Shown here: positions 1,038-61,556 of the stretch, piece after piece | How the letters are laid out: every line of letters starts with the position of its first letter | Numbering within the stretch: the stretch's first letter is position 1 | DNA from: Sphyrna mokarran | Taxonomy: Eukaryota | DNA length: 64,000 nt | NCBI GenBank assembly: GCA_024679065.1 | Contig: JAGIQG010000016.1 | Coordinates: 14,136,001 to 14,200,000, forward strand | Direction of reading: 5' to 3' | Notes under the pieces: generated by a model | What the model was told of the DNA's origin: nothing | What the model saw: only the letters and a program-made list of their open reading frames with translations | The model's database searches: none | Translations under genes and position numbers: made by a program

Positions 1038-1073
1038 AAATCGAAAACGTCAAAAAATTGGTCAGCGAACTCG
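1038..1073 (+). CDS. Microexon 1 (36 nt, phase 1-1), (E)IENVKKLVSEL
   Basis: acattttctttcctcag|AAATCG...GAACTCG|gtgagt. Confidence 0.9.
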
Positions 1074-1370
1074 GTGAGTTTGAAAGGACAATCAAACGTT
1101 TGATCCAAACTGACCACACCGCAACAACAGTGAGCACATGATTAGCCTAATAGACGGAAGACCTCCATTGTCATAACAAAACATAATATGAAATCAGTGA
1201 TAATAGGATCGTTCTAGTTTTACCAGTTAATGTTTACTTCCTGCCCTGATTTTGCTGCCCTCAAATCGCAAGAAAATTCTGAATAACCATTCCTTGTCAA
1301 TTTGCAGCATTATACAAAATTTAGGTTTGGCCAATATGTGAAAAGTGCCCCCCAGCCCCGTTCCCCCATA

Positions 1371-1398
1371 AACACACACACACACACACACACACACC

Positions 1399-1437
<39 letters not shown>
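1371..1437. repeat. (CA)n microsatellite, one interruption
   Basis: Direct reading. Confidence 0.98.
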
Positions 1438-1439
<2 letters not shown>

Positions 1440-2789
1440 TTGAAGATCTGCAGAAAAGAGAGAAACGAAAAAAAAATTCCATTGAAATTTCGTCACATTT
1501 GCTTCGCTGAATCTTACATTATTAATATTCTCAATGTTAAAATTAATCAGAAATTAACTACCAAGTCCATATAAATAGCCTGTTGTGACGTTAGGTCAGA
1601 GCTTGGAATCATGTGACGGATAATTCACTTCCTCACTCCTAAAATTCTGTAAATAGTTGAAAAGGCATGGTTAAGCGTGCAAGGGAAGGCTTTCCTTGGT
1701 GACTGCAAATCGAACAACACGCAAGTTTCGACAAGATCCAGAATATAGCACCTGCTTAGTTGACATCCATTTAAATATTTCTCTATTACCGGCACTCAGT
1801 GGCATTAATGTGTTCCATGCATAAGCCGCAATGAAACAACTCAGCAAAACAAAAGAAAACACTACAGATGCTGACAATCTGAAGAAAACACCGAAAGTGT
1901 TTGAATCCCACAGCAATTTGGGAAAAATCTGTGGACAGAGAAATCAAGCTGAACTTTCAATTTGTGATATGCATTTTGTGACTTTTCTTTTGTAGTATCG
2001 TATTTTTAGTTTTAGCTAATTACCTCATCTGTCTTTATAGAATATTGCTTTAATAGCCGTATGGTTTCCGACAAGGTGTACAATATATTTATAATTCACT
2101 TCGCTCAATCATTTCGAGCTGCGTTCTACTTCAGGAAACCTTGCATTTTAGAAGAAATATTAAAGGCAAACTGCCCGGAAGTGTTTGTTTCTCGTTTTGA
2201 ATCTCCACAAACATGGGCCGAGTTTCCTTCAGGCATGCACAAAATGTAAAGAATATAGGACAGGTAACAGAGAAACAGATCTTCCCCACTTTCTGCCAAA
2301 CTGTAACAGTCCATCTGGTATCCATGTGAAAACAAGCATATTTCTTTCTTTTTTTTTATTCTAACTTCGTAACAATGTGTTCTTTTCTCACACATATGCC
2401 TGTCCAGTTCCGCATTTAATGCATACACCTTAAGATCGCGTCGCGGTAGTCATATCGACATTATTTCCGCGAGTTGACAGGACTATTTGTCAAATCCTTG
2501 TTGGAGAATTGGATCTAGATGGGGTGGGATTCTCCATCCGCGCTTGCGCAAAACCGAGAATCCTACTTGAGGTCAATATAACTTTTCCTGGTCCCACATT
2601 CACCACCTGCTACAATTCTCGTGGTGGATGAATTCCACCCCCGTCCCCAAACCCCCGCCCCCTTGACCCCCTCCAGTTTTTCACTTTCGGACAAAAGACC
2701 ACATTTTCCACTGATTCTGACAAAACACACCATAACTTTGAAGAAGTCTATTAAACCATTTAGGATAAGACTGATAAGCCAGAATCGGA

Positions 2790-3980
2790 CCAGCAAAAAG
2801 GCGTTCGATAATGTGCCTCACAAAAGGTAGCTAGCTGCAGAACGTTAGGGTACACAGACTTGGTGGTGAAGTGTTAGCGTGAATTGACCATTGACTATCT
2901 AACACGATGCAGAGAGTTGGAATAAATGGAAGTTTTTCTGGTTAGCAGTTGGTGATTAGTGGCATGCCGCAGGGATCGGTGCTGGGGTATCAACTGTTTT
3001 CCATATACATAGACGACCTGGAGGAGGGGCTGAATGTAGAGTAAGAAAATTTGTTGATGATACGAAGATGAGTGGAAAAGTGAATTGCATGGAGGATGCG
3101 GAATGGCTGCAGCGAAATTTGGATAGGCTGAGTGAGTGGGCGAGGACCTGGCAGATGGAGCATAATGTTAGCAAATGTGAGGTTATCCACTTTGGAAAAA
3201 AATAATAGTAGAATGGAATATTTTTTAACTGGTGAAACGTTGCAGCAAGCTACCGTGCAGAGGGACCTGGGGGTCTTTGTGAATGAATCGCAAAATCTCA
3301 GTCTGCAGATGCAGCAGGTGATCAAGGAGGCGAATGGAATATTGACCTTTATCGCGAGGGAGATAAAATATAAAAGCAAGGAGGTCTTGCTGCAACTGTA
3401 CAAGGCACTGGTGAGGCCGCAACTGAAGTACTGTGTGCAGTTTTTGTTCCCTTATTTGCAAAAGGGTACATTGGGAGTACAAAGAACGTTCACTAGGCTG
3501 ATGCCGAAGATGAGGGGGTTAGCTTATGAGGAGAGATTGAGTAGATTGGGCCTGTACTCTTTGGAGTTTAGAAGGCTGAGGGGGGGGTCTTATAGAGACT
3601 TAGAAGATGATGAAGGTGCTAGATAGGGTAACAGTGGAGAGATTCTTTCCACTTAGAAAGGAAACCAGAACTAGAGGAGAAAGCCTCAAAATAAGCGAGG
3701 AGGGGGATAGCTTAGAACAAAAGTTGAGGAGGAACTTCTTCTCTTAAAGGATGGTGAATCTCTGGAATTCTCTGCCCATTGAAGTGGTGGAGGCTACCTC
3801 GTTGAATATGTTTAATCACAAGCAGAGAGATTTCTTATCGATAAGGGAATTAAGGGTTATGGGAAGCAGGCAAATAAGTAGAACTGATCCACTTCAGATC
3901 AGCCATGATCTTATTGAATGCGGGGCAGGCTCGAAGGGCTAGATGGTCTACTCATGCTCCTATTTCTTATGTTCTTCTGT
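2790..3980 (+). mobile_element. 5'-truncated CR1 LINE (RT C-terminal part + 3' tail), frameshifted
   Basis: KKAFDNVPHKR; LLQLYKALVRPQLKYCVQF; YEERLSRLGLYSLEFRRLRG; ends ttcttatgttctt. Confidence 0.93.
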
Positions 3981-4904
3981 AAGCCTTTAATTACGTTTTG
4001 GAAAAGTGAAAGGCATTGTTTTCATTAGTTTAGACGCTGGACAGGTAGCAACTGCCGCTAGGTCTCTCACTGACAACAGCGATTAAGACTAAGTTAGTCC
4101 ATTCGAAAATCTAGCGTCACAATGCCTTCTTTCACCAATCCATTAGAATTGGTTTTGAATGATACGCACGGTCCCAGTACCTTAAGTTTGAAGTTATCCA
4201 TCTAGCTACCACAAGAACTGGCTTCCTTTCTCCGAACTTCTTCCCACTGCCTAAGCACTGAACTCCTGTTCTTATTTCAATTTCTCTGGTATGTTCTTCA
4301 TGCCATGCCTGACCTCATCTTGTCCCTAATCTGTATCCATTATTCTCTCTATCATTTGGTTCCTGGGACCTTCTGAAAATCGAACTTCTCTTATTACTCA
4401 TCTGTTGGCTGATATTATTAAAGGTTCCCAAACCTCATGTAATATTGCCCTCACTTTTTAAAATGTCACTATCAGACCTATCCTTCCAGAACTACAATAT
4501 TACACTGCAGTATGCTCTTACAACTGACCTCCACAAGTGTATCTTTTTTTTTAATTCAAAATTCACGGACGTATTATCTACAGATCGATCCAGGAAATCC
4601 ATGCTTTATTGTCTCTAAGCAATGTTTCACTTCTCCACTTGGCCACGTTATCTCCTTTGAGATTAAGTATATCATTCTGAGATGAAAGCAAATTACTACT
4701 GTCTGAGAATCTGAAACAAGAAGAGAAATGCTGAAATATCTCAATAGTTCTGACAGCATCCGCCACTTTTGTCAGGATTGGGGGGGAAAAATCGTCCTCC
4801 CAAATCTTTTCATTTGCTCGGTGGAAATGAACTAAAGTAGTGCATTTATTGTCTATTGAAACCTGGTGGTTAAAAAAAAACTGGAATAATTTCTTGCACT
4901 CATT

Positions 4905-5580
4905 GTTTGGCGCTACTCTTCTTTGGCAATCAAGTCGATAAGGTTGTTAAGAAGGCATACGGAATCTTGGCTTTTATTGGTGGGGGGATTGAATTTCGGA
5001 GCCGCAACGTCATGTTGCAACTGTACATAACTCTGGTGCGGTCGCATTTGGAGTATTGTGTACAGTTCTGGTCCCCACATTATAAGAAAGATGTGGAGGC
5101 ATTGGAGAGGGTGCAGAGGAGGTTCACCAGGATGTTGCCTGGTATGGAGGGCAGGTCTTATGAGGAGAGGCTGAGGGATTTGAGGTTGTTTTCGTTAGAA
5201 AGGAGGAGGCTAAGAGGGGACCTGATCGAAACATATAAGATGATAAGAGGTTTAGATAGGGTGGACAGTGATAGCCTTTTTCCTAGGATGGAGAAAGCTA
5301 GCACGAGGGGACATAGCTTTAAATTAAGGGGTGGTAGTTATAGGACGGATGTCAGAGGTAGGTTTTTTAGCCAGAGGGTGGTAAGGGTATGGAATGCCCT
5401 GCCTGCTGCAGTTGTAGATGCGCCAACTTTGGGGGCGTTTAAGAGGTCCGTGGATAGGTTTATGGATGAAAAGGGAATGTTTTAGGTTAGAGGGTCATTG
5501 CTTTTTCTTATTTAGTCGGCGCAACATCGAGGGCCGAAGGGCCTGATCTGCGCTGTAATGTTCTATGTTCTATGCTCTAT
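4905..5580 (+). mobile_element. Young 5'-truncated CR1 LINE 3' end with open ORF2 C-terminus
   Basis: 192-aa ORF with LVRSHLEYCVQFWSPHYKKDVEALERVQRRFTRM; tail ggccgaagggcctg...(ttctatg)n. Confidence 0.95.
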
Positions 5581-7633
5581 CTCATTGATCTCTTTCATGT
5601 TGTTATCCCGTAGTGACATCAAGCAAATGATATGCAGTCAATCATTTGCTGATGATTGACTGCATCAGCAATCAATTGACTTCGCGTTTGAATACACAGC
5701 AGAGCACGTCGCAAAGCTTGTCAGTACTTATGCATCACCTCTTCCGTATACATCTTGAATCTCGCTGTCCCAGAGGCAAGGTGCTGGACAGTGCTTTAGA
5801 GACTCTCGTGCATGGAAAGGAAGGGATACAGTTTCACCTGCAACCCGTAGGCCCGCCTCTTCACGTACACCCAGAGTCAGAATAGGGTGGAGTTGTCCAT
5901 CATGCACAGTACAACTGGAATGCGAGTGAGATACACGACAAGAAACAAATGGAACTGGTGCATTTCAACTAATGAATGCGTTTAATTAGAATAGGAATGC
6001 AAACTGTCAGAATATAATCAAACTGTTGGTGATGACATGGTGGGGATGAAGGTGGGGAAGTAAAGCCTAACGTGGCACTTAAAAAATTTTGAATAATTAT
6101 GGAAAATTCACTTCCAAGATCAAGATTTAGCCTTAAGGCATCTGAGACCAGCTGATAAAACCAGTGCTTGAATTTCATACTTCGTATTGAAGGAATATCC
6201 TTGTATTGCCGTCTGACTGTTCACTCTATGCAGGATTGTTGTTTTTTTTTCGTTAACCCTTTATTAGTTTTCTACTTGCAATCCCAGATAACATGTCAGG
6301 TTGCCTTCTTAATGCTTACAGGAACTATCAAAAATAATGTTACCTTACAAGGAAACAAGAAAAAAGAATCAGGGTTTCAACTCAAAATAATTTATATTCA
6401 CGATCTTCTCATACATTTATAGGCAACGAGATTCACACGTTTACATGAAGTTGCTTAAAAATTGGAATTTCCGAATGACAAATAGTTAAGTTGGATGTGA
6501 ATGCGGCCAACACCGATATAGTCAATAAATTGTCTGTGTTGAGAGTTTTCTGTCAAATAGTTGTGCAAGTTTGGCATTGACTACAATCCAAACTGAATAG
6601 TTTAGTCGATAAACGCAGGCTTGATAACCCTCTTTTTCTTTCTACGTTATCTCTAATTGTTTTAATTGGCCTTGTTGCTACCTGCATGCGTGAGAGAGCC
6701 CTGAAATATCTACTCGAGATAATGGATTAGACAGCTGTAGTGTGCATGCTGAAGAAAGAGTTTGTCTAACATTTGCAGTATCAGGAGAACTTAAAATGTT
6801 TAGTAAACATTAATTCAGGTGCAAAATTAAATATGATTCAAATACGCAAGGTTGCAACAATCAAAAGGTAATTGGACTTGATAGGCTCAAATCTTCGGCA
6901 GCAGCTGTGATCCTTTGGGGGTTTTAAGTAAGTGATAAATTTGTCGATATTATGAGCAAATTCAAAGTTGTTCTCAACTTTAAACAGTTATTGAAAAAAA
7001 ACAAATGCATATTATCTGCTCCCGCTGTTTAAGCGAGGTTGGAAAGCTAAACGAAACCTTATAACCCTTTAAGAACCTTTTGTCGGGATGAGCGGAATAG
7101 GGAGACAAGCGCTTCTTTTTTTTCTAAATGTCGAAGTGCCATCAATGGACGTTTGGAAGAAGTGTATGTGGAAGTTCATAACACAGATAATTAATATGCA
7201 GTGCTGGAATCCAAAGTAATAATTTAAAAGGACTATCCAAAAAGTCTAAAACTGCTATCCTTTAGATCCGCCTGATAGAACGTATGCAAAAACAATATAA
7301 GTTTCAGGTATAGAAAGTTGGCAGTTACAAAGCACAGGGACTAGGGATGCCAGGCTCATGATGAACGGAGGTGAAATGGATCGTCTCACATGGCTATAGT
7401 CAAATACCTGTCGTCCACAGCCTTAAGCTACGATAAAAGGGTTCAGCAAGGCTGAAAGTTAATTGTAATGAAATGTGTCCCTGTAGCTCTTTGTTAAAAC
7501 TTACAATCTAAATCTACAGAGGAAAACATTGTGGTGCCTTGGGAGCGCTAATTAAAGAAAAGCATAAGTCCAAAGCCATTTGTGCATTTCTCAAATTGCA
7601 CTTTTGATGCATTATTTTCACTTTTACTGGTAG

Positions 7634-7660
7634 ATGAAGAATTGCGGAAAAAGAAAGCAG
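7634..7660 (+). CDS. Microexon 2 (27 nt), DEELRKKKA
   Basis: cacttttactggtag|ATGAAG...AAAGCAG|gtaaaa. Confidence 0.85.
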
Positions 7661-8302
7661 GTAAAATTGTTAGGAATAGTATGTTTTTTGTGGTATTTGA
7701 GTAAATTGTAGAACAAGCCAGATCAGTCTGGCAATTTTGATGTATGAATGGATTTTATCACTGACGTCCAGCTCTAATTAAAATCCAGATGTTTATTGCC
7801 AGCTCCCTTTATTTTTAATATTTTCCACTGGATAGACACAATGTCAATTTTTTCAAAAATGCATTACTGCTGATTCACATGCAAACAACCTAAACACTTC
7901 GCAGTTTTACTATCTGCCGCGTTCATTATTTCAGGAAACACTAGATAGTGTGGGTTCAACTTTTCTGGACAATCTAGAGGATATTGGATGACTTCATCAA
8001 TTCCTTTAAGTTTACAATGGCGTCTGACAAAATAGCCAGCAAAAGATCCTTCTATTGGTAGAGATTAAGATGAGTGGTCAGTAATAATAGCAGTTACTAA
8101 CAAACACAGGAAGTACTTCAGCGACACGACTTTATTTTGCTGTGAGTGTTTAGAATAATGGACTTGCTACAAAAAACTGCAGTTGAGGTGAGTGAGACTA
8201 TGGCTTTATGGAGCAACAAAATATATAGACGAGAGAGAAAGGAATGTAAATATGTGCTTAGAAGCAGTGTGATAAACACATCTGGCAAGACATTTATTAG
8301 AA

Positions 8303-8590
8303 GCACGGAGGTGCAGTGGTTAGCATTGCTGCCTCACAGCACCAGGGACCGGGTGTGATTCCAGCTTCCATACGGAGACTGTGTGTTCTCCCCACGTCTG
8401 CGTGGATTTCCTCTGGATTCTCTGGTTTCATCGCATAGTCCAAAATACCTGCTGGTTTCCATTGGGCATGCTACACCTCAACAGCATATCCGAACAGGTG
8501 CCAGAGAGTGGCAGCTGGAGATTTTCACATTCATCAATTGCAGTTTTAATGCACTCCTATTTATTTCACTAATAAATAAAGTCAAACTTA
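8303..8590 (+). mobile_element. tRNA-derived HE1-like SINE
   Basis: gtgcagtggttagcattgctgcctcacagc head (A box), degenerate B box, core ttctccccacgtctgcgtggatttcc. Confidence 0.8.
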
Positions 8591-8778
8591 GTATAGCCCC
8601 AATCAGTTGGACCGAATGTCATGGTTTTCCATCTTGAATTACATGCCAACCTGTGTAGCACACATTTCCTGCACCTTGCCTTGTAGATGCAATGGATTTA
8701 GCACTGCTCCTCTTCAGGTTCCAGTTCTCCATATCATGAAAACTGTAACTGATGTTTTAAACATTATTTTCGTTGCAG

Positions 8779-8814
8779 AGATAACAGCTCTGCAGAACAA
8801 AATGCATAACTTAG
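8779..8814 (+). CDS. Microexon 3 (36 nt), EITALQNKMHNL
   Basis: attttcgttgcag|AGATAAC...AACTTAG|gtaagg. Confidence 0.9.
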
Positions 8815-9219
8815 GTAAGGGATCACTTTAACTATCGCTTTGTCTAAATACTTCTGCAGACATTTGCCTTAGCTGCAATACAAACAACGGCAACAGTTTG
8901 TTTTTGTATAGCATGTTATCATAGCAGAGTATTCCAAGGAGCACCAGAGTTGTGTTGTCAATTCAAAGCAATAATATTGTGCAAAAATAGCGTATAGCAT
9001 ATCAATTTGCAAAAATTTTATAAAAGAAATGGGTTTTAAGCTTTGCTTTATTTTAGATGGAAACCGGAATGTGATGAGGAAAAAAATGACATGCAACAGA
9101 GCAGAATTCCGTACCACCGCGAGGTGTTCCATTGAGAACAAAAAGGACCCATAGGAAATTTTGCTGCAGATCGATAAGCATATGCCAAGTTGTAAATGGC
9201 AATTGATATCAGTTAGAGA

Positions 9220-9760
9220 AGAACATAAGAACGTAAGAAATAAAAGCAGAAATAGGCCATTTAACCCCTCGAGCCTGCCACACCATTCAATAAGATCACG
9301 GCTGATCTGAAAGTGGTTCAGTTCCACTTGCCTGCGTTCTCCCCATAACCCTTAATTCCCTTGTTATTCAGAAACCTATCTACCTGTGACTTAAACATAT
9401 TCAACGATGCAGGCTCCGCCGTTTTAATGCGCGGAGAATTCCAGAAATTCCGTACCCTCTGAGAGAAGTTCCTCCTCAACTCTGTTCTAAACTGACTCCC
9501 CTTTATTTCGAGGTGATGTCTTCTAGTTCTTGTTTCCTTTCTAAGTGGAAATAATCTTCCAGCCTCTACCCTATCTAGCCCCTTCATTATCTTATAATCT
9601 TCATAAGATCACCCCTCAGCCTCCTAAATTCCAACGAGTACAGGCCCAACCTACTGAATCTCTTCTTCTAAGCAAACCCCCTTATCTCTAGTATCAAACT
9701 GGTGAAACTTTTCTGTATTGCAAGACCAATATATCCTTTCGCAAATAAGGAAGCCAGGAT
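9220..9760 (-). mobile_element. CR1 LINE 3' fragment
   Basis: ORF 9318-9587(-) MKGLDRVEAGRLFPLRKETRTR; reverse tail agaacataagaacgtaagaa. Confidence 0.9.
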
Positions 9761-9998
9761 TAGCTCTGGTCTCAATAAATAAACTTCGAAATCAGATCAG
9801 GACAGTATTGGATTAGAATTGACTGTACACATCACAGGTATGCATGGCTATTTCACCTACAGCTAAACTGTTATTGTGAGAGTTACTATTTCATGGAATG
9901 TAAGCATCTTTTCATAACATGTTGCACAACTGATGTCCCTTTGTTTATGCTTTGTATTTTGCTGCTTTCAATGACCTTCCATTCCTCTTTCTAATCAC

Positions 9999-10025
9999 AT
10001 GAAAAAGTGAATCAAAATGACAAAG
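9999..10025 (+). CDS. Microexon 4 (27-nt class, acceptor reads CAC not CAG), DEKVNQNDK; possible in-frame 18-nt form 10008-10025
   Basis: ttcctctttctaatcac|ATGAAAAAGTGAATCAAAATGACAAAG|gtaagc; fits the 27-nt consensus and fills the expected slot in the alternation, but lacks AG. Confidence 0.6.
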
Positions 10026-10299
10026 GTAAGCTCGATGTCCGCCCCCATCAATGTACCATAATGTCCTTCGTAGAAAGCTTTGTGTGTTCTTGCTATCACA
10101 ACTGCAAATAGAAATCGAAACAATGGCCAGCTTCATAAGATAACTGAAAATAAGAACAAATGTGATAGTGACCTTATCCCAACTTCCCTGACTACTCACC
10201 ACCCACTACCCCATATCCATATCCTCTCCATCCACCTCTCCTCCCGCCCTTCCCACCTCCACCCCACCCCCAGCCCCAGAAACAAGTCCCAGAAACAAG

Positions 10300-10681
10300 G
10301 TGCATGCATTTGGCAGGTCGTGCGAGGGCTGCTTCTGGATGTTACTTCAGGAGTGGCCTAGTGCTTCATGTCGTTAGTGTATGCTTAAACTGGACCATCA
10401 GATGGGCAACCTGACAGCTCAGAGACTATCGCTGTTGCTGTGCAGACGCGTAGATTTGGGCCTGTGTCTGCGGGAGTTTGTGCGTTCTCCCCGTGGTTGC
10501 GTGGGTTTTCTCCAGGTGCTCCAGTTTCCTCCCACATCCCAAAAATGTGCTCTTAGGCTGATTGGGTAACAAATTGTCCCTATATTGGTCTCTATATGTC
10601 ATTAAGACGTTAGGATGGCGGCGCGGGCTCGTTGGACCGAAGGGCCTGTTTCCCGTGCTGTGTTGTTCTTTGTTCTTTGTT
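10300..10681 (+). mobile_element. HE1-like SINE with shared upstream leader and CR1-type tail (copy 1)
   Basis: Similar along its length to 28170-28740 and 48335-48810(-); tail ggcgcgggctcgttggaccgaagggcctg...(ttctttg)n. Confidence 0.85.
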
Positions 10682-10689
10682 AACAGTGA

Positions 10690-13300: not shown

Positions 13301-14084
13301 CATCTGCGCTACGTGAGGTTTAGAAATAACAGTTAACAGTTGCCTGTACTGTAGCAATCGTTTTCTGTACTTGGATTCAACTTCAATGTCAGAATCGACT
13401 CAGTTCCTTTCATGTGTTACACTTTGTCATGCAATGAACTGTTGCTGGGACTGGAGGCACTGAAGGACCTCCAGCAAACATCTGATTCATTCATCAAACA
13501 TGCATTTCTGCCTCAAATAAAGTCAATGGCATTACAATAACATCAGAACCAACGATAACTGCAGAGTCAATTGTACTGAACTAGTATGAAATCTAAAGAT
13601 ACGAGCCAAATTTACAGGAAATATTTAAATATTTATCTATTTCAGTTTAAATGGAGCATGAGACGAGAACTAACTAAAGATGCCAAGTCTTCTGGTTAAA
13701 ACTATGGTAAACGTTCTCGATAAAAGCAAGGTCACGTCTGTAGGAAACGATTGTGAATGGATCAAGGAGATTTAAGTCAAAATGACAATGTGGTTGACAG
13801 AAAAATAATATATCATTCGCACAGCAAGCTGTAATACTGCAAGTACGTGCTTTCAACTAATCGAGCCGCTGAAAGCGTAATAGGTTGACATGGACATTTT
13901 TCCAGCACCATTACCCTAGCCCTGACCTACGGCATCACTGCAATCACATTTTAGAAAGGGAAGAACTGCGTGTGACGACATTGATGACATGCTTTTCAAA
14001 TGAATGCCCTTGGAAACGGCATGAAATCCTACACTGTAGCAGCGCCTGCCTGATGGTAAGATCACTGAACTATTAATGCAGTAA

Positions 14085-43703: not shown

Positions 43704-43769
<66 letters not shown>
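43704..43769. repeat. (CA)n microsatellite, pure
   Basis: Direct reading. Confidence 0.98.
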
Positions 43770-43773
<4 letters not shown>

Positions 43774-48810: not shown

Positions 48811-48865
48811 AGTACATCAATATCATCATCTATTTACACACTTCCCAAGGCTCATGATCACTATT

Positions 48866-49967: not shown

Positions 49968-50409
49968 TTTTGTCAACAGTGACACACAGATCCTAAACCC
50001 GCTTCCATCTGCAATGATTAGGTTGTGGATTCAAGTCAAACGCCAGAGTACTGAGTAAATAAATACAAGTTATTGTGACAGAGCAACAGTGAGGGATCTG
50101 AAATTTCAAATGATATGTTACACCCAACCCCTGCTCTCTCTTCACTGCACACAAAAAGGCTTATGAATATACACAGAATTATCCGCCTTTAGGATAACGT
50201 CAGTTCTAGACACGAAGGAATCGCTGCACTTAAGATTCTAGAAAAAACAAGAATCATATAAACCTCGAGAGGAGAGAAATGGAACAGGAAGTATGTGCTG
50301 TGATCGTCATTCTTCACCCCATGTTTGTTGAGTTCTCTGGAAATGAAATTATTTCCCTCCTGTGAAACCTTCCTTTCTTTTTCAAAAAACTCTGATTGCG
50401 ATTTTTTAG

Positions 50410-50436
50410 AACAAAGAATGCTGAAAAAGGATAAAG
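50410..50436 (+). CDS. Microexon 16 (27 nt), EQRMLKKDK
   Basis: attgcgattttttag|AACAAA...GATAAAG|gtaagt. Confidence 0.92.
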
Positions 50437-52002
50437 GTAAGTGAAAAAGAATCTAACTGAGGGCATCACTCAACAAGCAAGAAAAGGAAAATTGTTATTG
50501 AACAAATATGCAAAATTGATGTTCATTATAACAAGCAGCTAGCTTGCAAAAACATAGGCGACTTGTTTAATGGTTGCATGATACGCTGCTTGTACTACCA
50601 TTATGGAAGATATGTAGGGGATGGCTAGCATTTGTTGACTGTCCCTAACCATCGGCATCTGCCCATGTATCATCCACATATTGGTGTGGACTTCGGGTCA
50701 CAATGTAGGTGCAACCGTGAAAGTCCAGCAGACTTCCTTTCTGTCGAAATATATTTGTGATCCATGTAAGCAATTTCTACAATTGGCAATGGATTTAGAC
50801 TTTTAATTCAAGATTTCTATGGGACTCGAATATAGATTTCAGCCGGCTCGCAGATTTTGCTCGGAATTTCTAGATTACTCGTCCGTTGGTTATACCACTG
50901 AGCGACCACCTTCCCATCTGTACACCTATATATTCCTCCCTAGTTTGGTGGTGGCATTATTTCTTCTGAACCAGACGACAGCAGATTATTTCTCACTGCA
51001 ACATTTTAAGCTCAGAATCTATGTTAAATTTTGCAGCGTTGTAATTATAGTGAGATGGGATTTTGGATATGTCAGGAATGGGACCTGGCATCGTATTTCC
51101 TTTTGTACTCATCACCGGATACTAAAGTTCTCCTGGAACTATGTCTACGAATAACAGCAGACTTGTCGCGCATGCTTTCCGCAATGTTTGTTGTTCTTGC
51201 ACAACAAGCGAGAGATGTTGCTATGTGTCACTTTCTTATTATTTTCTGGAAGGTACCTATGGGGGAGGGAAACAGTGACGAATTTCTGTGGTGAGAATAG
51301 ATTTCACAGGAAAGCAATGGCCGGACTTGGAAAACATATCACTGTTTGTGGCGCAGAGTGAGATGCTGATATATGCTTTCCAACATAACGCTACGTTTCT
51401 CCCTTCTTTTTTTTCAAATTCCAATTGCTACTGTTCAAAATGTTATTGCGTTAGTGGACAGGGTTCTAAAGCCTAACTCTGAATCTGATTAACTGAAAAA
51501 TGATTCCTTTTTTTGTTTGCATACGGGAGTAGATTTCACATAAGAATGCCAAATCGAATATATGCGTATGGCACAGAAGTGATGCAACCACCGTTTGTTT
51601 CATTGCAGCATAGAATCAATTGGCGGCGATTTGAACCCAGCTCTTAACCGACCATGATTTTCGGACCATTCTAATCTGAAATCAATGACATCAAGTTGTC
51701 TTTCACTTTTTTAACAGCGCATAATTTGTGCTACCTTGCAACATAGCTGAAGCCACATATTAGTTTCCACTCTTCCAACGTCCATTTTTGATCAGGTGAC
51801 TATCTGGGAATACTAGCGGCAACTGACGCATGCGGAGTCATCTCGAAAGGAACAGTGCTTTTTTATTGCACAGAATAAAGTAAAACAAAAGTGACAAGGC
51901 TGTGGTGAACACAACACAACTCTCTCTCTCCCGCCCCCCCCCCGCTCCCCCTCCCCCGCCTGTCTCTCCATTTCTCTATTTAATTATTTTTTTCTGCTTT
52001 AG

Positions 52003-52038
52003 TCATAGGAAAACTAAAAGAGAGTATCACTGAATTGG
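52003..52038 (+). CDS. Microexon 17 (36 nt), VIGKLKESITEL
   Basis: tttttttctgctttag|TCATAG...GAATTGG|gtgagg. Confidence 0.88.
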
Positions 52039-52362
52039 GTGAGGAAATTAAGTCCTTTAAGCGATTGTTTGGAACAAGTCGAAATAGAGTGGCATCGTTT
52101 TGTTGTTGTTGTTGTTATTCACAGTACTGCGCGAGGATAAATAAATGAATATTCTGAGCGAGGATACATAAATGGATATTTTAACATTGAATGTAAGTCC
52201 TTTTGTTTTAGAACCCAAACTGACAACTAGTTGCAATGTAGACTTAACGAACACATAACTGGGGAGAGATACCACACTATACTGACCGAAATGAAATGCC
52301 ACCATGATATCGAAGATAGTTTTTGTGAATAACTTTATTTGTCCGATTTATGCTCCCTCCAG

Positions 52363-52389
52363 AACAAAGATTTGAGAACAAAGACAAAG
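52363..52389 (+). CDS. Microexon 18 (27 nt), EQRFENKDK
   Basis: ttatgctccctccag|AACAAA...GACAAAG|gtgagg. Confidence 0.92.
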
Positions 52390-52699
52390 GTGAGGATGGA
52401 ACTTGGTTTAATGGATGTCGAAATGGAACTATCTTTTTTTTCCTCCATGAATCTTCTTTTTATCCTTGTCAATGTAACATTGGACATTGGCCTTATCAGG
52501 AAGTGATGCTTCAAGTCCCTGTCTTCACAAGTCTCAAATTATTCTGTGTGTTAGAGATGGACAGGTGCCTGACTTGCCAAACAACTCCTCTGTCGGAGAT
52601 TTTAAACGGCATGTTTTTTTTAAAAAAATCACCTTAATTGCCATGAGTGCATCGCACATATGTCACAGAATTTTTTTTTGAATGTTTGCAAGAAATATC

Positions 52700-52842
52700 T
52701 TCCTTCTTTCCATGTTTTCTCGTCCTTTCCTTCCTTTTTTTCTTCTTTCCTTCCTCCTTCCTTCTTTCGTTCCTTCCTCCTTCCCTCCCTCAATTCTTTC
52801 CTTCCATTCCTTCTTCCTTTCTGCCTTCCTTCCTTCTTTCTG
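52700..52842. repeat. (TTCC)n-like pyrimidine tract in intron 18
   Basis: Direct reading. Confidence 0.9.
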
Positions 52843-52984
52843 TCATTTTTCAGTGATTCTTCTCTGCACTTCTGGCATCATTCACTATTCCTTCTTAATC
52901 GTCTTTCTTCTCCCTTTTTGCCTTATTTTTCTTCTACTCGTTCAAGTTATGACCTGCTAACATACCTGTTTTCTTTTATGATAG

Positions 52985-53020
52985 AAATATCAAACCTGAA
53001 AGCAAGTCTGCAAGACGCAG
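52985..53020 (+). CDS. Microexon 19 (36 nt), EISNLKASLQDA
   Basis: gttttcttttatgatag|AAATAT...GACGCAG|gtcaat; weaker donor. Confidence 0.85.
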
Positions 53021-53169
53021 GTCAATGGAACCATTTTTGACTGTCTTTAACCTCAAAGGCACGGCAACCGCTTACTGTGATGGATAGGCATCATGCTTTA
53101 AATGCCTCACTTATAAGGATTGTATGAACAGTCAAGTCTAGTATTCCCTTCATATGGACAATTAAGAGC

Positions 53170-53930
53170 TAATTGACATCCACTATAAATCGATAATGTT
53201 ATCTGTCATGGAGAGAAACTGCAGAAAACTGCAACACAAAGGCACTTGGGGTTCTTGCACAGGAAACAGACAAAACTATTACGCAGATGCAACAGGTAAT
53301 CAGGAATGTGACTAGAGTGTTAGCCCTTTGTCTCAAAGCTATTGGAGTTAAAGGGTAGGAAAGTCCTGTTATAACTGTACAATATACTGGCTGGATTATA
53401 CTATGAGCTGTTTTGTCCCCCATTTTTAAGGACAAATACTAATTCATCAGAAACTGTTTAGCACGTGTTCACACGAGTGATCACTGGAATGGACGGATAG
53501 CTTACACTGAAATGTTAAACATGTTCCGATCCATTTATTGGATTTTTACAAGAATGTGGAGTGATCTCGTTGAAACAAATGGGATTCTTAAGAGGTTTGA
53601 AAGGGCAAATGATAACAGGATGTTCCTCCTTATAGGAGTGTCTAGGACAGGGGGAAGAGTCTCAGGATAGAAAATCAGACTGAGCTGAGAAAGAAATTCT
53701 TCTCTCACAGATCTCTGAGTCTTTGGAAATCCTTGCCAGAGAGAGTTGTAGAGAGTATAGTATTTTTTCTGTATATTTAAGGTTGGGACAGATAGATTGC
53801 TGAACACTAATGGATTCAACTGTTACAGGGAAAGGGCAGGAAAATAGTCATGAGGAATGTCGGATCAGCAATGGTACTGTTGAATAGCAGAACAGACTCA
53901 AATTCTGAACGGCTTTATCCTGTTCCTATT
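53170..53930 (+). mobile_element. Decayed CR1 3' fragment
   Basis: acttgggggttcttg...gtgatctcgttgaaaca...ctttatcctgttcctat. Confidence 0.75.
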
Positions 53931-54854
53931 TATTTTGACATTGTGAAATGCATACAATGGAATGTCGACAGGTGATTTTAAGTCGCTGATACTGCAGGAT
54001 AGCTTTCCAACAGCAAAAGAAGTGTGGTTGACAGGATATTTATTTCGATGGAGCATGTTACTTATTAATAAAAAAATCCTGAACAAAGCAGTTCTTTATG
54101 CACTCTAGTATATTCTATTTGGGTACTAATTAATCATTGCCTTGATTGACCTAAACATAATTCTGGAAAATCTTGAAAGTCTAAACATAACAACTTACAA
54201 GGAAGAAGCCTCTATGTTGATATGGCATCGTGTTAAAGGACATGCAATATGTTTCCGAGTTAGGAAAAATACTTTACCACTGAAATATTCAACAAGGCTG
54301 AATACCTGAAATTGAGTTTTGACCGGTGCAATGCAATGTTGCAATGTTGGCACTTTTGAGGTGTAAATGCCACGACAGAAGGAGACTTCACATGAAATTC
54401 GAGTTAAGTTATGGGACCCTTGGCATCTCTCTCAAAATGGACATCAGGCCTTGTTTAATCTCTCACCTGAATGACAGGAGCTCGAACAATTAATAATTAA
54501 CATTAATAATTCCAATATGGAATATTTTCTGAGGGTTATGGAATGAGACATCAGAGCACAATCCTCTGACTTAGAGTCTGTGGTGCTTTCAACTTTGAGG
54601 AAAAAAGAACACCGTTATTCTCACAGATGCAAAATTCCAGTAGTTCATTTAAGTTTCCTTTCAACTGTTTGGCTAAGTTTCATCTTGGAAACTATTTGAA
54701 ATAAATTGTGTTTTTTATTCATAATCAATTTGTGCCGTGATGAAGGAAGAAGGCATTTTAAATCGGAACGGGAGGTTGCATAGCACTCCTGGTTGGAATT
54801 GAATTGCACTTCCAGTTTCCAAATAATCAATTTTGACTTTTCATCCTCTTTCAG

Positions 54855-54881
54855 AAGAAGAGCTTAGTAGGACAGACAAAG
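54855..54881 (+). CDS. Microexon 20 (27 nt), EEELSRTDK
   Basis: tcatcctctttcag|AAGAAG...GACAAAG|gtaagg. Confidence 0.92.
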
Positions 54882-55129
54882 GTAAGGATAAGCCAACTGC
54901 GATGTGAGACATGAGTGGGAAATTCTGTCGACATCAGTTGTCGAACTCGCAAATATTGATCCCATTGACGATCATGGAGTTGAATATCATCATGTGTAGA
55001 GAATGGGAAATAGTAGTGATGTCGCCTGTTTTATCTCCACGTTGAAAATTGATTTTAAGTTGACTCTTAATTTCGTCTGTACTGTTAACTTCTTTCCTGC
55101 AATGTTATTGCGACGGTAATGATCCTTTT

Positions 55130-55830
55130 TTCATTCAGTTGCGCGAGTTATGCGTCAGTGGTTTGCCAGCATTTATTAGCAATCTCTAACTCACTTCAGC
55201 TGAGTGGCTTACACTCAGAAAGCATTTCAGAAAGCAGTTGAGAGTCAAACGCATTGATATGGCTCCGGGGTCATCCGGACTGTTTTGGACAGTGATAGCC
55301 TTTTTCCTAGGATGGAGAAAGCTAGCACGAGGGGACACAGCTTTAAAATAAGGGGTGATAGTGATAGGACGGATATCAGAGGTAGGTTCTTTACCTTAAG
55401 GGTGGTTCGGGAGTGGAATGCCCTGCCTGCGGCAGTTGTAGATGCGCCAAGTTTGGTGGCGTTTAAGAGGTTAGTTGATAAGTATATGGAAGAGAAGGGA
55501 ATGGTTTAGTTTGGAGGGTCATTGCTTTCTATATTGGTCAGCGCAACATCGAAGGCCGAAGGGCCTGTTCTGTGCTGTAATGTTCTATGAGTCAAATATA
55601 GGGTAAAGACAGCAGATTACGTTCCCTAAAGGACGTTAGTAAATCAAATGAGTCTTTGCTCCAATCGATAGTAGTTTCATGGTCATCAGTGCATTCCCAA
55701 TTCCACATTTTTTTATTGAATTCAAATTGCACCCCTGCTGTGGCGGCATTCGTACCCGGGTCCACAGACATTAGCTGAGCTTCTGGATTGATAGTCTAGC
55801 AATAATAAAACTCGGTGATTACCTTCCCCT
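55130..55830 (-). mobile_element. Deu/SacSINE-like SINE interrupted by a + strand CR1 3' fragment (55285-55590)
   Basis: Inserted piece DSDSLFPRMEKASTRGHSFK closely matches 5262-5570; SINE resumes after it. Confidence 0.85.
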
Positions 55831-56509
55831 ATAGTGGCATTGAATAGTAGAGAAAGCTGCGCATCAAAACTCCGACCCATTTACCCACCGAAATTAACCC
55901 CCTGCCTACTACAATTGTTCTATTTCTGCATTTAGATTAACTCATCCCTGAAAGAACCAGCAGCTTTCCCGTGCACTAGTAATTGGATAAACTGGAATAC
56001 AATGGGCATCTTCGTTGCTAAAAATAGACTGAATTACCTATGATCCTTCATTCAGATTCAGCCATGTATCCATATCGAACCAATTAGTGGATATTCCGGC
56101 GAATGTGAACTTTCCTGTGCTCCTCACGCACAATATGACAAATGGAGTTCAATAGAAGTGGATGACAGGCGCGGGGTGTAACAAAGTTCAAAGAAGACCC
56201 AAACTACATTTTCATTTGAAAGTGGAGAAAACGGTGAGGGTCGGGGGTGGGGTGTGATGGGGAGGAAGTGTGAGGGGATCTTATAGTCGGAACGTGTGAA
56301 AATTATTGCTTTCCGACATATGGTACAATATTAATTTAAAATGGGCAAGGAAAGCAACGTCTGATGAGGTTTATTAAAGGGTGATTCACGATCAAAGGTC
56401 ACTTCCTCTGATGCACTGACAATGCATTCCATCTCCTGCCTCCATATGGAGGATCTTATTTCATTTCAAGTCGTTTTTAGGAATGTCCAAGTGATATTGC
56501 AAAACAGAA

Positions 56510-58030
56510 ACCAGAATATTGATTCAGTGGGAGGAAGCAGAGGCTGATGGTCAAAGATTGTTTTGTGCCTGGAAGCCTCTGCCCAGTGGGGTGCCACAAG
56601 GATCGGTGCATTTCTGTTTGAAAAATCTAGATGTGAATTGAGAAATATGTTTCAAAGATCACAGGTGTCACGAAAATTGGTGGTGTGATAAATAGCGAGG
56701 TGGAAAACCTTAGATGCCATGTTAATATGGACAAGTTGAACAGCAGGTCAGAACATTGGTCGATGCAGATTAACCCTGAAGAACCTGTGGTGATGCATTT
56801 TGGGGGAACGAAGAAGGCAACGGAATACATAATGAAAGACAGAATGCTGGGAAGTACAGAGATGCAGAAGATTGCATGTCAATGACCTCTGAAGAGAGCA
56901 AAACATCAGGATTAGATGATTAAGAAGACATATCGGATAATTTTCTGTATTAGCCAAGGCACGAATTTTAAGAGTAGGGAGTGTACGATGCAGCTGTATA
57001 AAATAGTTATGACGCACGGTTCAGCAATAGGTTGCCAGTTTCTTTTTTGTACAATATACAAAAACACAAACATTTGAAGCAAGAACAGTCCACCAGGTCT
57101 TCAAGCCTGTCCTGCCACTCAGTACAATTATGCCTGATGTTGGTCTCGGCTTATTTTTCTGCCTTACTTCCCCAAAGCCTTCCATTCCTCACTCTGTCAT
57201 ACATTTATCCACCTCCAATTTAAATACTTCAAATGATTGAGCCGCCATTATTCTTCATACAGTGACTAATCAGCCTCCACGAGAAGAAATATATATGTAT
57301 CTCAGTTTCAAATGGTCAGCCCATTATCTTCTAGCTGCCCCCTTGTTCAGGACTCTCTTACTAGTGAAAACATATCATCATATATCTTTCAAAAAACCCT
57401 CAGGATCTTATATCTTTGGCTAACATCACCCTTCACGCTGCAAAACTCCAAGGATTACAAGCCCACACACTTGAATCTCTCTTGATAACACTCTTTGTCC
57501 AGATTGCTATAAGGAATGCGTGACAATAACAGACAGAGTACCCATCAAATTGTTGAAAAGGATTATGGATTGTGGAAAGGATAGATGAGATTTACAAGAA
57601 TAGTTCCAAGGATGAGAAACTTCAGTTCTGAGGATAAATTATAGGGAATGGCACTGTTGTCTTGGAGAGAAGAAAGCCAGGAGCAGATTTGTTAAGACGT
57701 TCAAATTCATAAGATAACTAGACAGAAAAGATGACGGGAAATTCTTCCAAGTCACAAAACGATAAAGAACGAGAAGGACACATTTAATGTGATTTGCAAA
57801 AAAAAACAATGTGAGACAAATACTTCGACACGCAATGAAACGTTTAGGTCTGCAATGCGCTTCTTTGAAAGAATGGTGGAGATAGCTTCAATTGAGGAAT
57901 TCAAGGGCGCTTTAGATTATTATTTGAAGAGAAAAAAAAAGTGCAGAGGTGCGAGAAAAGGGCAAGGACATTAAGTCATTGCGCTCATTTGGCTAGCTGA
58001 TGTGGACATGATGTGAAAACTGTATTCTTC
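56510..58030. mobile_element. Cluster of decayed CR1 fragments (+ 56510-57030, - 57060-57500, + 57560-58030)
   Basis: agtggggtgccacaaggatcggtg (SGVPQGS); VMHFG; later 3' motifs. Confidence 0.7.
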
Positions 58031-58519
58031 TGTAGCACAGTAATTCTGTGGTTCAATGGTATGCAGCTGATGTACAGCTATAGACTATATTCTGGAAACT
58101 GAGGTTGGGTTGTGTTTTACAAAAGGCTAAGGCACAACCAGCTAAGGGGTCTCATTCTATGCTTTCTGTGATGTGAAAAAAAATGCAATAGTCTAAATGA
58201 CCAACTATTGCCTCATCTCAAAGCGCAGCCTAACAAATGATTTTGAAGTTTGGTCAGTATTTCAGTAGTCAATAGCACACAACCTCATTGCAAAGGCAGG
58301 AATGAAAGAAGTGCCAAAAAATCAATTGTTTTGTTTCGTGATAGTATCTGTGCAATAGGCATTGTCCCAGGATACGGTCTGTCACCTTGCTTTGTTTTCA
58401 TTTTTTGGCTGTGGAACTTTCACATCTAGCTGAGACAGAAACTTAAGTTTGTCTCTTATCTTGCTACAAAAGGAGTACAGCTAAAGTTCTTGAGGCTGAT
58501 TCCTGTGACAGTAGGTCTG

Positions 58520-58945
58520 CTACATAAGGAAAGACTGAGTCAATTCGGATTAGATTCATTGGAGTTGAAAGAAGTGAGAGGCGTCTCATAGTAATATATA
58601 AATTTCTAATAGGGTTAAGCAGGGTAGATTCTGAAAGGATGTTCCCGTTGGTGGGGGAGTCCGGAGTAGCGGTCACAGTTTGAGAATAACCTTTTATATC
58701 TGTGGTAAGGAGAAAGTTGTTCACCCAGAGAGTCGTGAATGTGTGGAACTGACCAGCACAGAAAGTAGCTGAGGCCAAAGTATTATGTGATTTCAAGAAA
58801 AAAATAAATATAGCTCTTGGGGCTAGATGAATCAAGGGATGTGGGAGGGAGTGGAATCAGGATATTGAATTTGATGTTCAGCTATGATCATGGAGCAAGA
58901 TCGATGGGCCCAATGCCCGCCTACTGTTTCCAGTTTCTACGTTTC
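58520..58945 (+). mobile_element. CR1 3' fragment
   Basis: ttcacccagagagtcgtgaatgtgtggaac; tail cctactgtttccagtttcta. Confidence 0.8.
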
Positions 58946-59094
58946 CAGCAACAGAAAGACACGATCATTCATTCAATACTCAGTCACCAATGAATGTTCA
59001 AACTTTAGTATGTATGCGCATGCCTGGCATGGAGTTCGGACCTGTTATATTCAGAGTACAATTCACTTCAGCATTATTTATATTTAATTTTCAG

Positions 59095-59130
59095 AGCTGG
59101 AGAAACAAAAAACCGTTCTTGAAAATACAG
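59095..59130 (+). CDS. Microexon 21 (36 nt), ELEKQKTVLENT
   Basis: tatttaattttcag|AGCTGG...AATACAG|gtcagt. Confidence 0.9.
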
Positions 59131-60335
59131 GTCAGTGGAATGTCCTGGTTCCATACATTGATGCTGGAAAGGACATATATATGCTCCCCGTTTCTCCATT
59201 TGCCATTGGCTCAGTGAATTGTGATTCTGTTGTAGGCAGAAGAAAGAAAAGATAAGAGTGATTTTCTTCAATTTAAAGTGCTGACAGGAAAGAAATCCCT
59301 CACTGAAATTTCACACTGTGTCTCCCTCCTTTGGAAACCTGCAACGAGTATTTTTACGTTGCACCCTCGTGCCTATTGCCTCGTGAATGCGCTACAACTA
59401 GCTATTCCTGGTCATTAACTTTCATTGCAACAGCCTTTGTATTGGCATCGTGCGTATGATAGAAAAAGTAGAAATTTCATCGGCCTAATTATTGGCAATA
59501 CTTAAGATTTTTGCCTTCAATCTTCAACATTGCCCGTTTCCTCATCATGGAACCCATCCCTCTCCAGAACAACTTCCTGAGCTTCGAAAACGTAGCTCCA
59601 GGTTTGACGACAAGCTCAACTTTCAAAACTAAAATTGGCTCAATCGCCGCTATTGTTTCACTCAACGCTACCTGCCCCCAATCTCAACTTGTAACAGTGT
59701 ATTTCAGTGTTCCGCTTGAGCTTGCATTCTGATGATACCCTCGTACATTTAGTGCCTTTGTTATTTAGAAATTTGATTATTCCAATGTTCTTCTGGGCAA
59801 AGTACGATTATTCAAACACGTCTCTCGTTATCAATGCCAAATCACCAAAACACAGGCCCAGTTCCTTAACAGATATAAATTCCCTTTATCCATACCTCTG
59901 AGCTTATTGATCTGTTTAGACTTCTGCGATTACAAAAATTCAATAGAAAATTTTGGACCTAACATTAAAAGTCCCTTCATGGCCTTGCACGCCGCTAGTC
60001 ATCATTGCCTTCTGGCAGCACTGTAATCTTTCTGTGGTAGTCAAATACTAGCGTCGTGTGCACCCACAGTGCGATCGCAGCATTTGTTTTCTCTCCCTCT
60101 TCATCTTCCTTCTATTCTTGTCCATCTCTTTCTTATTTTTCTACTATACTGATTTGCAGATCTGCGTCTATTTCTGTCGTTCTTGTTACTTTTGCTATCA
60201 CTTTGTTCTTCTCCGCTTACGTTCCCTTCACCAAAAACTCTTTTCATTCCTTATTTTTGACGTCCTTCCCTATTTTGCTCTCGTCTACCATGTGCTTCAA
60301 TCAATCGTACGATTAATAGTAACTATTTATTTCAG

Positions 60336-60362
60336 AAAACAGTATGAAAGAAAACATTAAAG
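60336..60362 (+). CDS. Microexon 22 (27 nt), ENSMKENIK
   Basis: ctatttatttcag|AAAACA...ATTAAAG|gtaaat. Confidence 0.9.
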
Positions 60363-60509
60363 GTAAATGTAAAGCACCGCGTTCCCATACTAAAGTCAGC
60401 AGAAGGATGTTTCCTGATAACGAGCTGTATTGTCAAGAATCACATAGAATAATGTGGGATATGATACACCAAAGAAACAGCGCTGTCAGAGCAAATAACA
60501 AAGGGGTCA

Positions 60510-61190
60510 TTGAGATATACAGAACAGAAAGAGGTCTTTCGGCCCAACTCACCCATGTTGGCCAGGTGTCCAAAACTGAACTAGTCCCATTTACCTATAG
60601 TTGGCCCATATTCTTCCAGCCATTTCCCATCGATCTGTCAATCCTACAATGGTAGTAAAAAGAGGGTAATTTTACCCTCTTGCCTGGCAGTTCATTCCAT
60701 AAATGCACTGCACTCTGTGTGAAATAATTGCCTTCAGATCCTTTTAAATATTTGCTCTCTCAGATTAAACCAATACCATTTAGTTTTAAACTCCCCTATT
60801 CTGGGTAATGTACATTGTAAGAAGTCTCACAGCACCAGGTTAAAATCCGACAGGTTTATTTGGTAGTAAGCATTGCAAGCTTTTGGGGCTTCGTCAGGTG
60901 AGTGGAGAGAAATCGTCTGAAAGCTGGTGACGTTTACTACCAAATAAACTTGTTCGACTTCAACCTGGTGTTGTCAGACTTCTTACTGTGTTTACCCCAA
61001 TCCAACACCAGCAGCTCCACGTCATCATGTACCTTGACCCATTCATCTTATCTATGTCGCTCATGATTTTATAAAGCTCTGTAAGGTCAACCTTCATTAT
61101 GCTACATTTCAGGGAGGAAAAACCCAGCCTATCTAGCCTCTCCTTATAATTCATATGTCGAGTCCATGGCGATATCCATGCATTAAAAAA
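60510..61190 (-). mobile_element. CR1 3' fragment interrupted by a palindromic element
   Basis: MNYKERLDRLGFSSLK...VDLTELYKIMSDIDKM. Confidence 0.8.
60815..61025. mobile_element. Short palindromic element, probably Penelope-like-derived
   Basis: ~53-bp imperfect inverted arms 60817-60869 / 60934-60986. Confidence 0.7.
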
Positions 61191-61520
61191 ATCCATATTC
61201 CCTCATCTGACACTATCTGCAGAGGTCTATATTTTCGATTCCTCATATGGCTAGACTCCGTTTTTCGGTGAGAAGCAACTCATTTCGACAGGTATTCCTC
61301 ACAATGAATTCCAGACCTGATATTCATAACACATATTTCAGTGAAAACGTTGCCTCGGAATGACCTTGTGAAATAAAGATCTTTTTCACAAGTGAAAACA
61401 GTATTACTGTGTATTCTACTCAAAGCGTTCGTCACTTTTTGGGCCACCCTTATGCTCCTTTTTATTTCATTGGCAGCCCACATGCCAAAATAACGAAAAT
61501 GTTCTTTGCTTTTGCTACAG

Positions 61521-61556
61521 AAATAGATATGTTGAAGGAGCGTCTTCAGGATACAG
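61521..61556 (+). CDS. Microexon 23 (36 nt), EIDMLKERLQDT
   Basis: ctttgcttttgctacag|AAATAG...GATACAG|gtaaat. Confidence 0.92.

Follow-up and report, generated by a model that had tools for sequence, protein, structure and literature searches.

What kind of gene is assembled from exons of only 27 and 36 nucleotides (nt), and can the length of its product be tuned by splicing? This question is raised by a stretch of Sphyrna mokarran DNA of 64,000 nt, here called the window (C668:14136001-14200000, by the coordinates used for contig C668 throughout, in a 2.77-Gb assembly). We consider it probable that the window is the middle of a cartilaginous-fish gene, which would code for a long rod, a parallel coiled coil, with a divergent B30.2 domain at its tip, and whose heptad register would be kept by selection. 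The exon grammar of this gene, its extent, its terminal domain, its paralogues and the lack of detectable immunoglobulin (Ig), RING and B-box exons are directly observed in the genome. The main finding is the gene family to which it belongs, and which looks undescribed.

The window has ~40% G+C and contains fragments of long interspersed nuclear elements (LINEs) as well as microsatellites. A scan for 27- or 36-nt exons bounded by AG and GT returned 10 strong candidates on the plus strand and none on the minus strand, and profiles trained on these candidates yielded 22 exons with intact splice sites. The leave-one-out profile scores of the 22 exons range from 14.7 to 37.6, as opposed to 1.0 and 2.7 for the best scores on the reverse strand. 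A 23rd exon (exon 4) was found by a scan that did not demand AG, and with its inclusion the exon numbering agrees with that of the first-pass annotation of this DNA. Together, the 23 phase-1 exons cover positions 1038-61556 of the plus strand and alternate strictly between 36 nt (type A) and 27 nt (type B). G is the last base of every exon (23/23), and stop codons arise at none of the 253 possible junctions. The proposal of the first-pass annotation that any subset of exons stays in frame is borne out, all exons being symmetric and in phase 1.

Read in phase 1, an A and a B exon form a unit of 21 residues, or three heptads. Unit positions 2, 5, 9, 12 (often small) and 16 are hydrophobic and position 19 is mostly Lys; the spacing is 3-4-3-4-3-4, and the hydrophobic periodicity peaks at 3.5 in a Fourier analysis. 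An A exon would accordingly span heptad positions g to d and a B exon positions e to f. Second codon positions are the most conserved ones in A and B exons alike. According to the rules that govern the oligomer state of GCN4 coiled coils, the common occurrence of beta-branched residues at the first a position and of Leu at d suggests a parallel dimer, and Lys at every sixth core position would render the core periodically soft.

The window is only a part of the array. Scanned with the profiles, 694 kb of flanking DNA show the array to run from approximately C668:13.79 to 14.318 Mb (~530 kb), i.e., 345 kb upstream and 120 kb downstream of the window. In a family-trained scan 126 candidates on the plus strand and one on the minus strand score >18, the 126 including the training exons, for which these scores are inflated. 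The exon catalogue comprises candidates with a score >18 and a length <60 nt, nine exons that the profile scans had yielded at lower scores, plus exon 4; seven candidates upstream of the candidate first exon are omitted. It holds 123 exons (49 of 36 nt, 66 of 27 nt and 8 of 18-33 nt), which are separated by introns of 0.3-40 kb and, when joined, code for 1244 residues without a stop. With every exon in use and a coiled-coil rise of 0.1485 nm per residue, the rod would measure up to ~185 nm, and a unit of 21 residues corresponds to ~3.1 nm, in agreement with the step of ~3 nm per exon pair expected at first pass.

The last micro-exon, a 27-nt exon with a Trp codon (C668:14318086), is followed 2.2 kb further on by a B30.2 exon with an intact reading frame, which matches Pfam SPRY (E 2.6e-15) and is missed by the Pfam PRY model. 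The closest solved structure is the B30.2 domain of BTN3A1 (E 1.8e-25, residues 3-161). Past the B30.2 exon of an upstream paralogue (13.716 Mb), this B30.2 exon is the only one. Eight N-terminal parts of BTN proteins found no Ig match at E 0.01 by tblastn against the 694 kb around the gene; the same tblastn detects IgV in the control locus L100, and the control loci L100 and L101 served for IgC2. The 28 IgC2 matches (PF22705) obtained in the genome from 88 candidates include none in C668:8.5-14.4 Mb. Likewise, seven TRIM queries for RING and B-box domains are without a match in the 694 kb and match the control locus L077. A genome search with a whole BTN query scored B30.2 candidates only. 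A C-type-lectin neck (CD23-like), triadin and collagen were considered and dropped, given the B30.2 exon and the lack of a Gly-X-Y pattern.

By the features tested, the gene is not a butyrophilin, a TRIM or a BG gene; it resembles the tail of a BG protein fused to the terminal part of a butyrophilin. The likeness to chicken BG genes lies in a long coiled coil encoded by numerous symmetric micro-exons, the first codon of which is split. However, BG exons are mostly 21 nt long (one heptad), while the exons described here alternate between 36 and 27 nt and are about four times as numerous; moreover, BG proteins have an IgV domain and a transmembrane segment and lack B30.2, in contrast to the present gene, where B30.2 is present and no Ig was found. 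BG genes are described in an extract of PMC5938342 as carrying 27-38 repeats, the number of which varies between genes, with variants arising by intron read-through, and in excerpts of PMC5043582 BG alleles differ through expansion of a four-exon repeat and the tails vary by exon blocks; a degree of alternative splicing is known for BG genes as well. Butyrophilins share phase-1 heptad exons, the 27-nt Trp exon and a terminal B30.2 domain, as in a BTN gene on contig C1548 of this genome, and the combination of heptads and B30.2 is already known from butyrophilins (PMC8813856, PMC12841164, both in excerpt). The present gene differs from BTN3A1 and shark BTN in that no IgV or IgC2 was found; furthermore, its heptad region comprises ~1240 residues rather than a short stalk, and its B30.2 domain forms a long branch of its own without a Pfam PRY match. 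TRIM-B30.2 proteins also feature a coiled coil followed by B30.2, yet their coiled coils occupy few large exons, and neither the gene region nor the models of six relatives contain RING or B-box domains. Finally, type II membrane proteins of gar and bowfin (P0083, P0119) combine a hydrophobic segment, a repetitive coiled-coil neck and a C-terminal B30.2 domain without Ig or RING; their B30.2 domains group with BTN rows and P0119 fails the parse with the 12/9 profiles, indicating a parallel design. In P0083, P0119 and P0194 (gar, bowfin) a lectin-like type II start is joined to a B30.2 head, an arrangement that would put B30.2 outside the cell.

The gene does not stand alone. Genome-wide, the 27-nt exon pattern has 31 matches, compared to 2 for a control; 19 are located on C668 (8.6-14.2 Mb), 6 on C1548 (98-101 Mb), and a few are strays. 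Sampled stretches at the matches on both contigs contain A and B exons, and the genome harbours at least seven copies of the family (this gene and six paralogues), the rods of which differ greatly in length. The nearest named single-domain HMMER matches are from chimaera, catshark, basking shark, skate and electric ray, where they are annotated as TRIM39/58/69-like, A33-like, nuclear-pore anchor-like or myosin-like. In all six family models scanned, SPRY is the sole Pfam domain, and the 12/9 profiles parse five of five family models above shuffles (e.g., 127 versus 24 +- 9) and none of three control proteins. In a tree of 64 B30.2 domains, seven domains of this genome and nine of relatives fall on one side of a branch with 100/100 support, and this family clade (16 rows) is set apart from 11 BTN, 27 TRIM and 10 other rows. 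The tree is midpoint-rooted and as such does not decide between a BTN and a TRIM source; an origin from a BTN-like gene is favoured by the 3' layout, since the same succession of phase-1 heptad exons, Trp exon and B30.2 is found in a butyrophilin of this genome. Word-based searches among proteins yielded no orthologue of full length. No literature account of the 36+27 grammar, the scale, the missing Ig and RING domains or the distinct B30.2 clade was found by a search that left subscription journals mostly outside, and the supplements of genome papers could list the loci.

The paralogues indicate how such arrays may change. At C668:12.195-12.275 Mb (L078-L085, minus strand) a block of ~68 kb is duplicated at 86-88% identity, and its six detected exons sum to 56 residues, or eight heptads; this is one case, expected by chance in one of seven, and exons may be missed. 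Judging by near-identical 27-nt exons at 12.084, 12.200, 12.268 and 12.340 Mb, there may be four copies or more. Among the 18 exons detected in the C1548 paralogue there are four consecutive 36-nt exons and exons of 24, 30 and 48 nt. Within the gene itself, long duplications were looked for and rejected, as the 15 longest of 57 self-matches >1.2 kb recur widely and look like interspersed repeats. The stretch C1548:91.8-112.9 Mb holds >100 B30.2 exons together with TRIM genes and butyrophilin IgC exons, and family members lie inside this cluster at 98-101.5 Mb; the cluster is probably an MHC-linked region (MHC, major histocompatibility complex).

Across the whole gene, the exon types alternate at 89 of 122 junctions, as opposed to 52.6 under permutation (p 1e-4), and 68 of the 87 typed junctions are in register. 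The distance from one A exon to the next is 21 residues in 31 of 48 units, the remaining 17 being out of register in genomic order, a count that missed exons could inflate. No other part of the ~530-kb gene is as regular as the eighth covered by the window: 11 of the 11 window units are regular if exon 4 is counted, compared with 12/19, 6/10 and 0/5 elsewhere. BB junctions (17) are frequent and AA junctions (1) rare, and the commonest register shift is +2 (nine cases), followed by +4 (six). An excerpt of Hartmann et al. 2016 (PMC4786415) describes a +4 insertion as a stutter (18/5), one of +5 as having to be delocalised, and one of +2 as helix-breaking, with beta-layers formed in trimers.

These patterns are consistent with a rod that grew as exons and blocks of exons were duplicated again and again. 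With symmetric phase 1, the gain or loss of any exon would leave the frame intact; selection on the heptad register would hold 36+27 pairs together along extended tracts like that of the window, with occasional extra or shortened single exons forming hinges or stutters. The protein most likely oligomerises through the rod and would hold its B30.2 heads, the putative binding end, up to ~185 nm away from an N-terminal hydrophobic leader, as a spacer-mounted binding or recognition protein. Its length would mostly be set by gene copy and allele, through gain and loss of exon blocks as in chicken BG, and alternative splicing is likely to affect mainly single exons, some of which would toggle a register break.

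Several points weigh against this proposal. Function and oligomer state are deduced from sequence only, and the joining of the exons, the first exon and the unity of a 530-kb transcription unit are all drawn from genomic DNA. Duplication in pairs is not supported for this gene, as the similarity of A exons does not follow that of the B exons paired with them (Mantel r 0.055 and -0.003). The splice sites of 10 "extra" 27-nt exons are not weaker than those of 30 typical ones (p 0.31), and nothing therefore marks them as cassettes. Sequons, taken as a sign of secretion, are not enriched (7 versus 5.7 expected). A hydrophobic start is present in two of six relatives' models inspected (P0108, P0183) and absent from the other four; the C1548 paralogue is without a convincing hydrophobic first exon within 100 kb; and seven family-like exon candidates (C668:13746672-13789763, L056-L060) are placed between the last exon of the upstream paralogue and the candidate first exon, where they may represent a gene of their own, a remnant or another 5' end.

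A possible but doubtful alternative is a cytoplasmic protein without a leader, comparable to an orphan tail of a butyrophilin or BG (cf. the BG-derived zipper protein), or the presence of more than one gene in the 530 kb. The four models lacking a hydrophobic start would fit this alternative. One of the seven upstream candidates, a 36-nt exon, holds an in-frame ATG, a second candidate for a hydrophobic ATG exon is located within the array (C668:13964777), and a gap of 42 kb near C668:13.86-13.90 Mb could be a boundary. Moreover, the B30.2 domains of BTN and TRIM proteins are cytoplasmic according to an extract of PMC8813856. On the other hand, the candidate first exon at C668:13790726 is the best of seven plus-strand matches (control strand, one), has a strong phase-1 donor and precedes an A exon by 1.2 kb. 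It resembles the N-terminus of the skate model (score 26, p 0.009 against shuffles), yet not that of the chimaera model (p 0.83), and as a genome query it matches itself only. The hydrophobic ATG exon would encode a signal peptide or an anchor, between which the sequence tools used do not separate, and there is about an even chance that it exports or anchors the protein. In the adjacent upstream DNA (C668:13.716-13.775 Mb) the CpG observed/expected ratio per kb is 0.35-0.9, mostly >0.55, which is high for vertebrate intergenic DNA.

The first-pass annotation had envisaged that adjacent 36+27 pairs are skipped jointly and under regulation, yielding isoforms in steps of 21 residues (~3 nm) in the manner of a ruler. 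The premises of this idea hold: the exons are symmetric and in phase 1, the rod is heptad-based and a pair codes for 21 residues. Adjacent pairs are a multiple of seven residues in 22 of 22 cases and single exons in 0 of 23. The claim that single losses strain the coil also stands, as in terms of the excerpt of PMC4786415 the loss of a 36-nt exon equals a two-residue insertion and that of a 27-nt exon a five-residue insertion, which are the hardest to accommodate. A lead is provided by long SPRY clusters in the ESM Atlas named up to "isoform X51", the kinship of which to the family is not established; these clusters comprise 1277-1802 residues and match PRY, unlike the present family. However, the splice strengths of neighbouring exons are uncorrelated (r -0.001, p 0.47, n=122; rho -0.05 for AB and 0.11 for BA), the weakest acceptors belong to single B exons (10, 12, 6 and 22), and a run of weak sites spans three exons. 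Furthermore, the 17 units out of register and the row of 36-nt exons in the C1548 paralogue are at odds with strict pairing, and none of five internal isoform differences among relatives equals 21 residues. These differences (6, 9, 9, 9 and 7 residues, in three sets with 12 sequences) come from computed gene models of shorter paralogues and carry light weight. Read by eye, a 9-residue difference in catshark and the 6-residue difference in electric ray restore the register when omitted; of the others, one is a whole heptad, one a Trp exon and one was not placed. Regulated paired skipping, arithmetically attractive as it is, would seem unproven, unsupported and somewhat disfavoured, and we regard the ruler as rather improbable.

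Splice strengths were derived from crude vertebrate matrices made for this analysis, with enhancers and RNA structure outside them. Among the donors named as weak at first pass, those of exons 19 (1.1) and 8 (-0.4) are indeed weak and that of exon 7 (5.1) is not. The acceptors of exons 10, 11 and 12 are weak as well (-5.4, 0.8 and -6.8), and those of exons 6, 13, 16 and 22 share this weakness; 10 and 12 are the weakest in the window, followed by 6, 22, 16, 13 and 11. The four alternative in-frame AGs noted previously (exons 11, 17, 20 and 23) are present, yet not above chance: 10 AGs are in frame and 13 out of frame within the first 12 nt of the 23 window exons (p 0.52), and 51 and 82, respectively, gene-wide (p 0.65). 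The in-frame AGs exist because of Glu codons, and their use would cost one to four residues and disrupt the register. Patternless splice strengths and AGs at chance would also be expected if the array were spliced constitutively, apart from noise and a dead exon 4, with the phase reflecting duplication history and the weak sites drift. In keeping with this, small phase-1 heptad exons are also placed ahead of B30.2 in an ordinary butyrophilin gene of the same genome, and an excerpt of PMC5043582 reports one predominant transcript per haplotype for chicken BG1. Constitutive splicing is nevertheless unlikely, as the models of relatives list several isoforms with internal skips, and the unfailing inclusion of 120 micro-exons, several with very weak acceptors, is hard to envisage.

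The alternation is carried by 22 exons with intact sites; exon 4 is preceded by CAC rather than AG, and as assembled the alternation is broken there. The only AG nearby is located 9 nt inside the exon, in frame and weak (-7.6), and would give an 18-nt exon. Skipping of exon 4 can leave a 12-residue unit, and entry at the internal AG can leave one of 18 residues. A U12-type intron was rejected, the upstream donor being an ordinary U2-type site when set against the U12 consensus. Exon 4 with its flanks is single-copy in a genome search, and the AC may be an allele, an assembly error or a fixed change. Were it an early lesion of a decaying gene, in which the order of exons no longer matters, a further A-like stretch downstream with a broken donor would fit. 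Decay is very improbable, however, given ~1244 joined codons free of stops, an intact B30.2 frame, and only 2 convincing broken exons as opposed to ~120 intact ones.

The preferred reading remains the coiled-coil rod with a B30.2 tip. Its most far-reaching version, secreted or surface rods of up to ~185 nm with extracellular B30.2 and coordinated splicing of >100 micro-exons, where pairs set length and singles make hinges, is distinctly improbable. The features are compiled in Table 1.

Table 1. Micro-exons of the window (window positions) and terminal exons of the gene (contig positions)
Feature	Position	Strand	Description
Candidate first exon	C668:13790726 (L056:4726)	+	ATG, 13-residue hydrophobic core, strong phase-1 donor
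Window as gene interior	1..64000	+	Gene extends past both window ends
Exon 1	1038..1073	+	36 nt, type A, heptad g to d
Exon 2	7634..7660	+	27 nt, type B, heptad e to f
Exon 3	8779..8814	+	36 nt
Exon 4	9999..10025	+	27-nt type-B body, strong donor, AC in place of acceptor AG
Exon 5	17682..17717	+	36 nt
Exon 6	18805..18831	+	27 nt, weak acceptor
Exon 7	21913..21948	+	36 nt, donor gtaact
Exon 8	24345..24371	+	27 nt, weak donor gtacta
Exon 9	27878..27913	+	36 nt
Exon 10	29854..29880	+	27 nt, weak acceptor
Exon 11	32186..32221	+	36 nt, weak acceptor, second AG at +3
Exon 12	34162..34188	+	27 nt, weakest acceptor in window
Exon 13	35584..35619	+	36 nt
Exon 14	37858..37884	+	27 nt
Exon 15	41926..41961	+	36 nt
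Exon 16	50410..50436	+	27 nt
Exon 17	52003..52038	+	36 nt, second AG at +6
Exon 18	52363..52389	+	27 nt
Exon 19	52985..53020	+	36 nt, weak donor gtcaat
Exon 20	54855..54881	+	27 nt, extra AGs at +3 and +6
Exon 21	59095..59130	+	36 nt
Exon 22	60336..60362	+	27 nt
Exon 23	61521..61556	+	36 nt, second AG at +6
B30.2 exon	C668:14320310-14320828 (L024:310-828)	+	Pfam SPRY

Some further observations concern the DNA between and beyond these exons. An additional 27-nt candidate (48083-48109, plus strand; score 16.7) was dismissed as a chance match, since the reverse strand has 10 matches >16 in 604 kb; it lies within a short tandem duplication and, if real, would interrupt the alternation on the way from exon 15 to exon 16. 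A degenerate stretch resembling U2 small nuclear RNA (17556-17670, plus strand; 28.4 bits with a gathering score of 46, E 0.088) stops 11 nt before exon 5 and overlaps the branch and pyrimidine region of this exon. The introns are filled with LINE-like fragments bearing reverse transcriptase, which we take to be CR1, and with short dispersed repeats (2900-3960, 4930-5560, 14220-14700, 16600-17200 and others). Some 24 kb beyond the B30.2 exon, a G+C-rich stretch (L026:4531-4842, plus strand), the open frame of which resembles a Myb/SANT-like domain, is followed by several kb of low-complexity, pyrimidine-rich DNA.

The family is common to chimaeras, sharks and rays, with copies near or away from the TRIM/butyrophilin cluster, and it seems to be hidden from annotation, as its members are misnamed and most models are far shorter than the gene described here. 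It offers a natural test of the limits that the coiled-coil register imposes on the gain, loss and skipping of exons: in contrast to BG genes with their one heptad per exon, single events break the register here, whereas paired events preserve it. Should the leader prove to be a signal peptide, an immune domain that is normally cytoplasmic would be displayed outside the cell.

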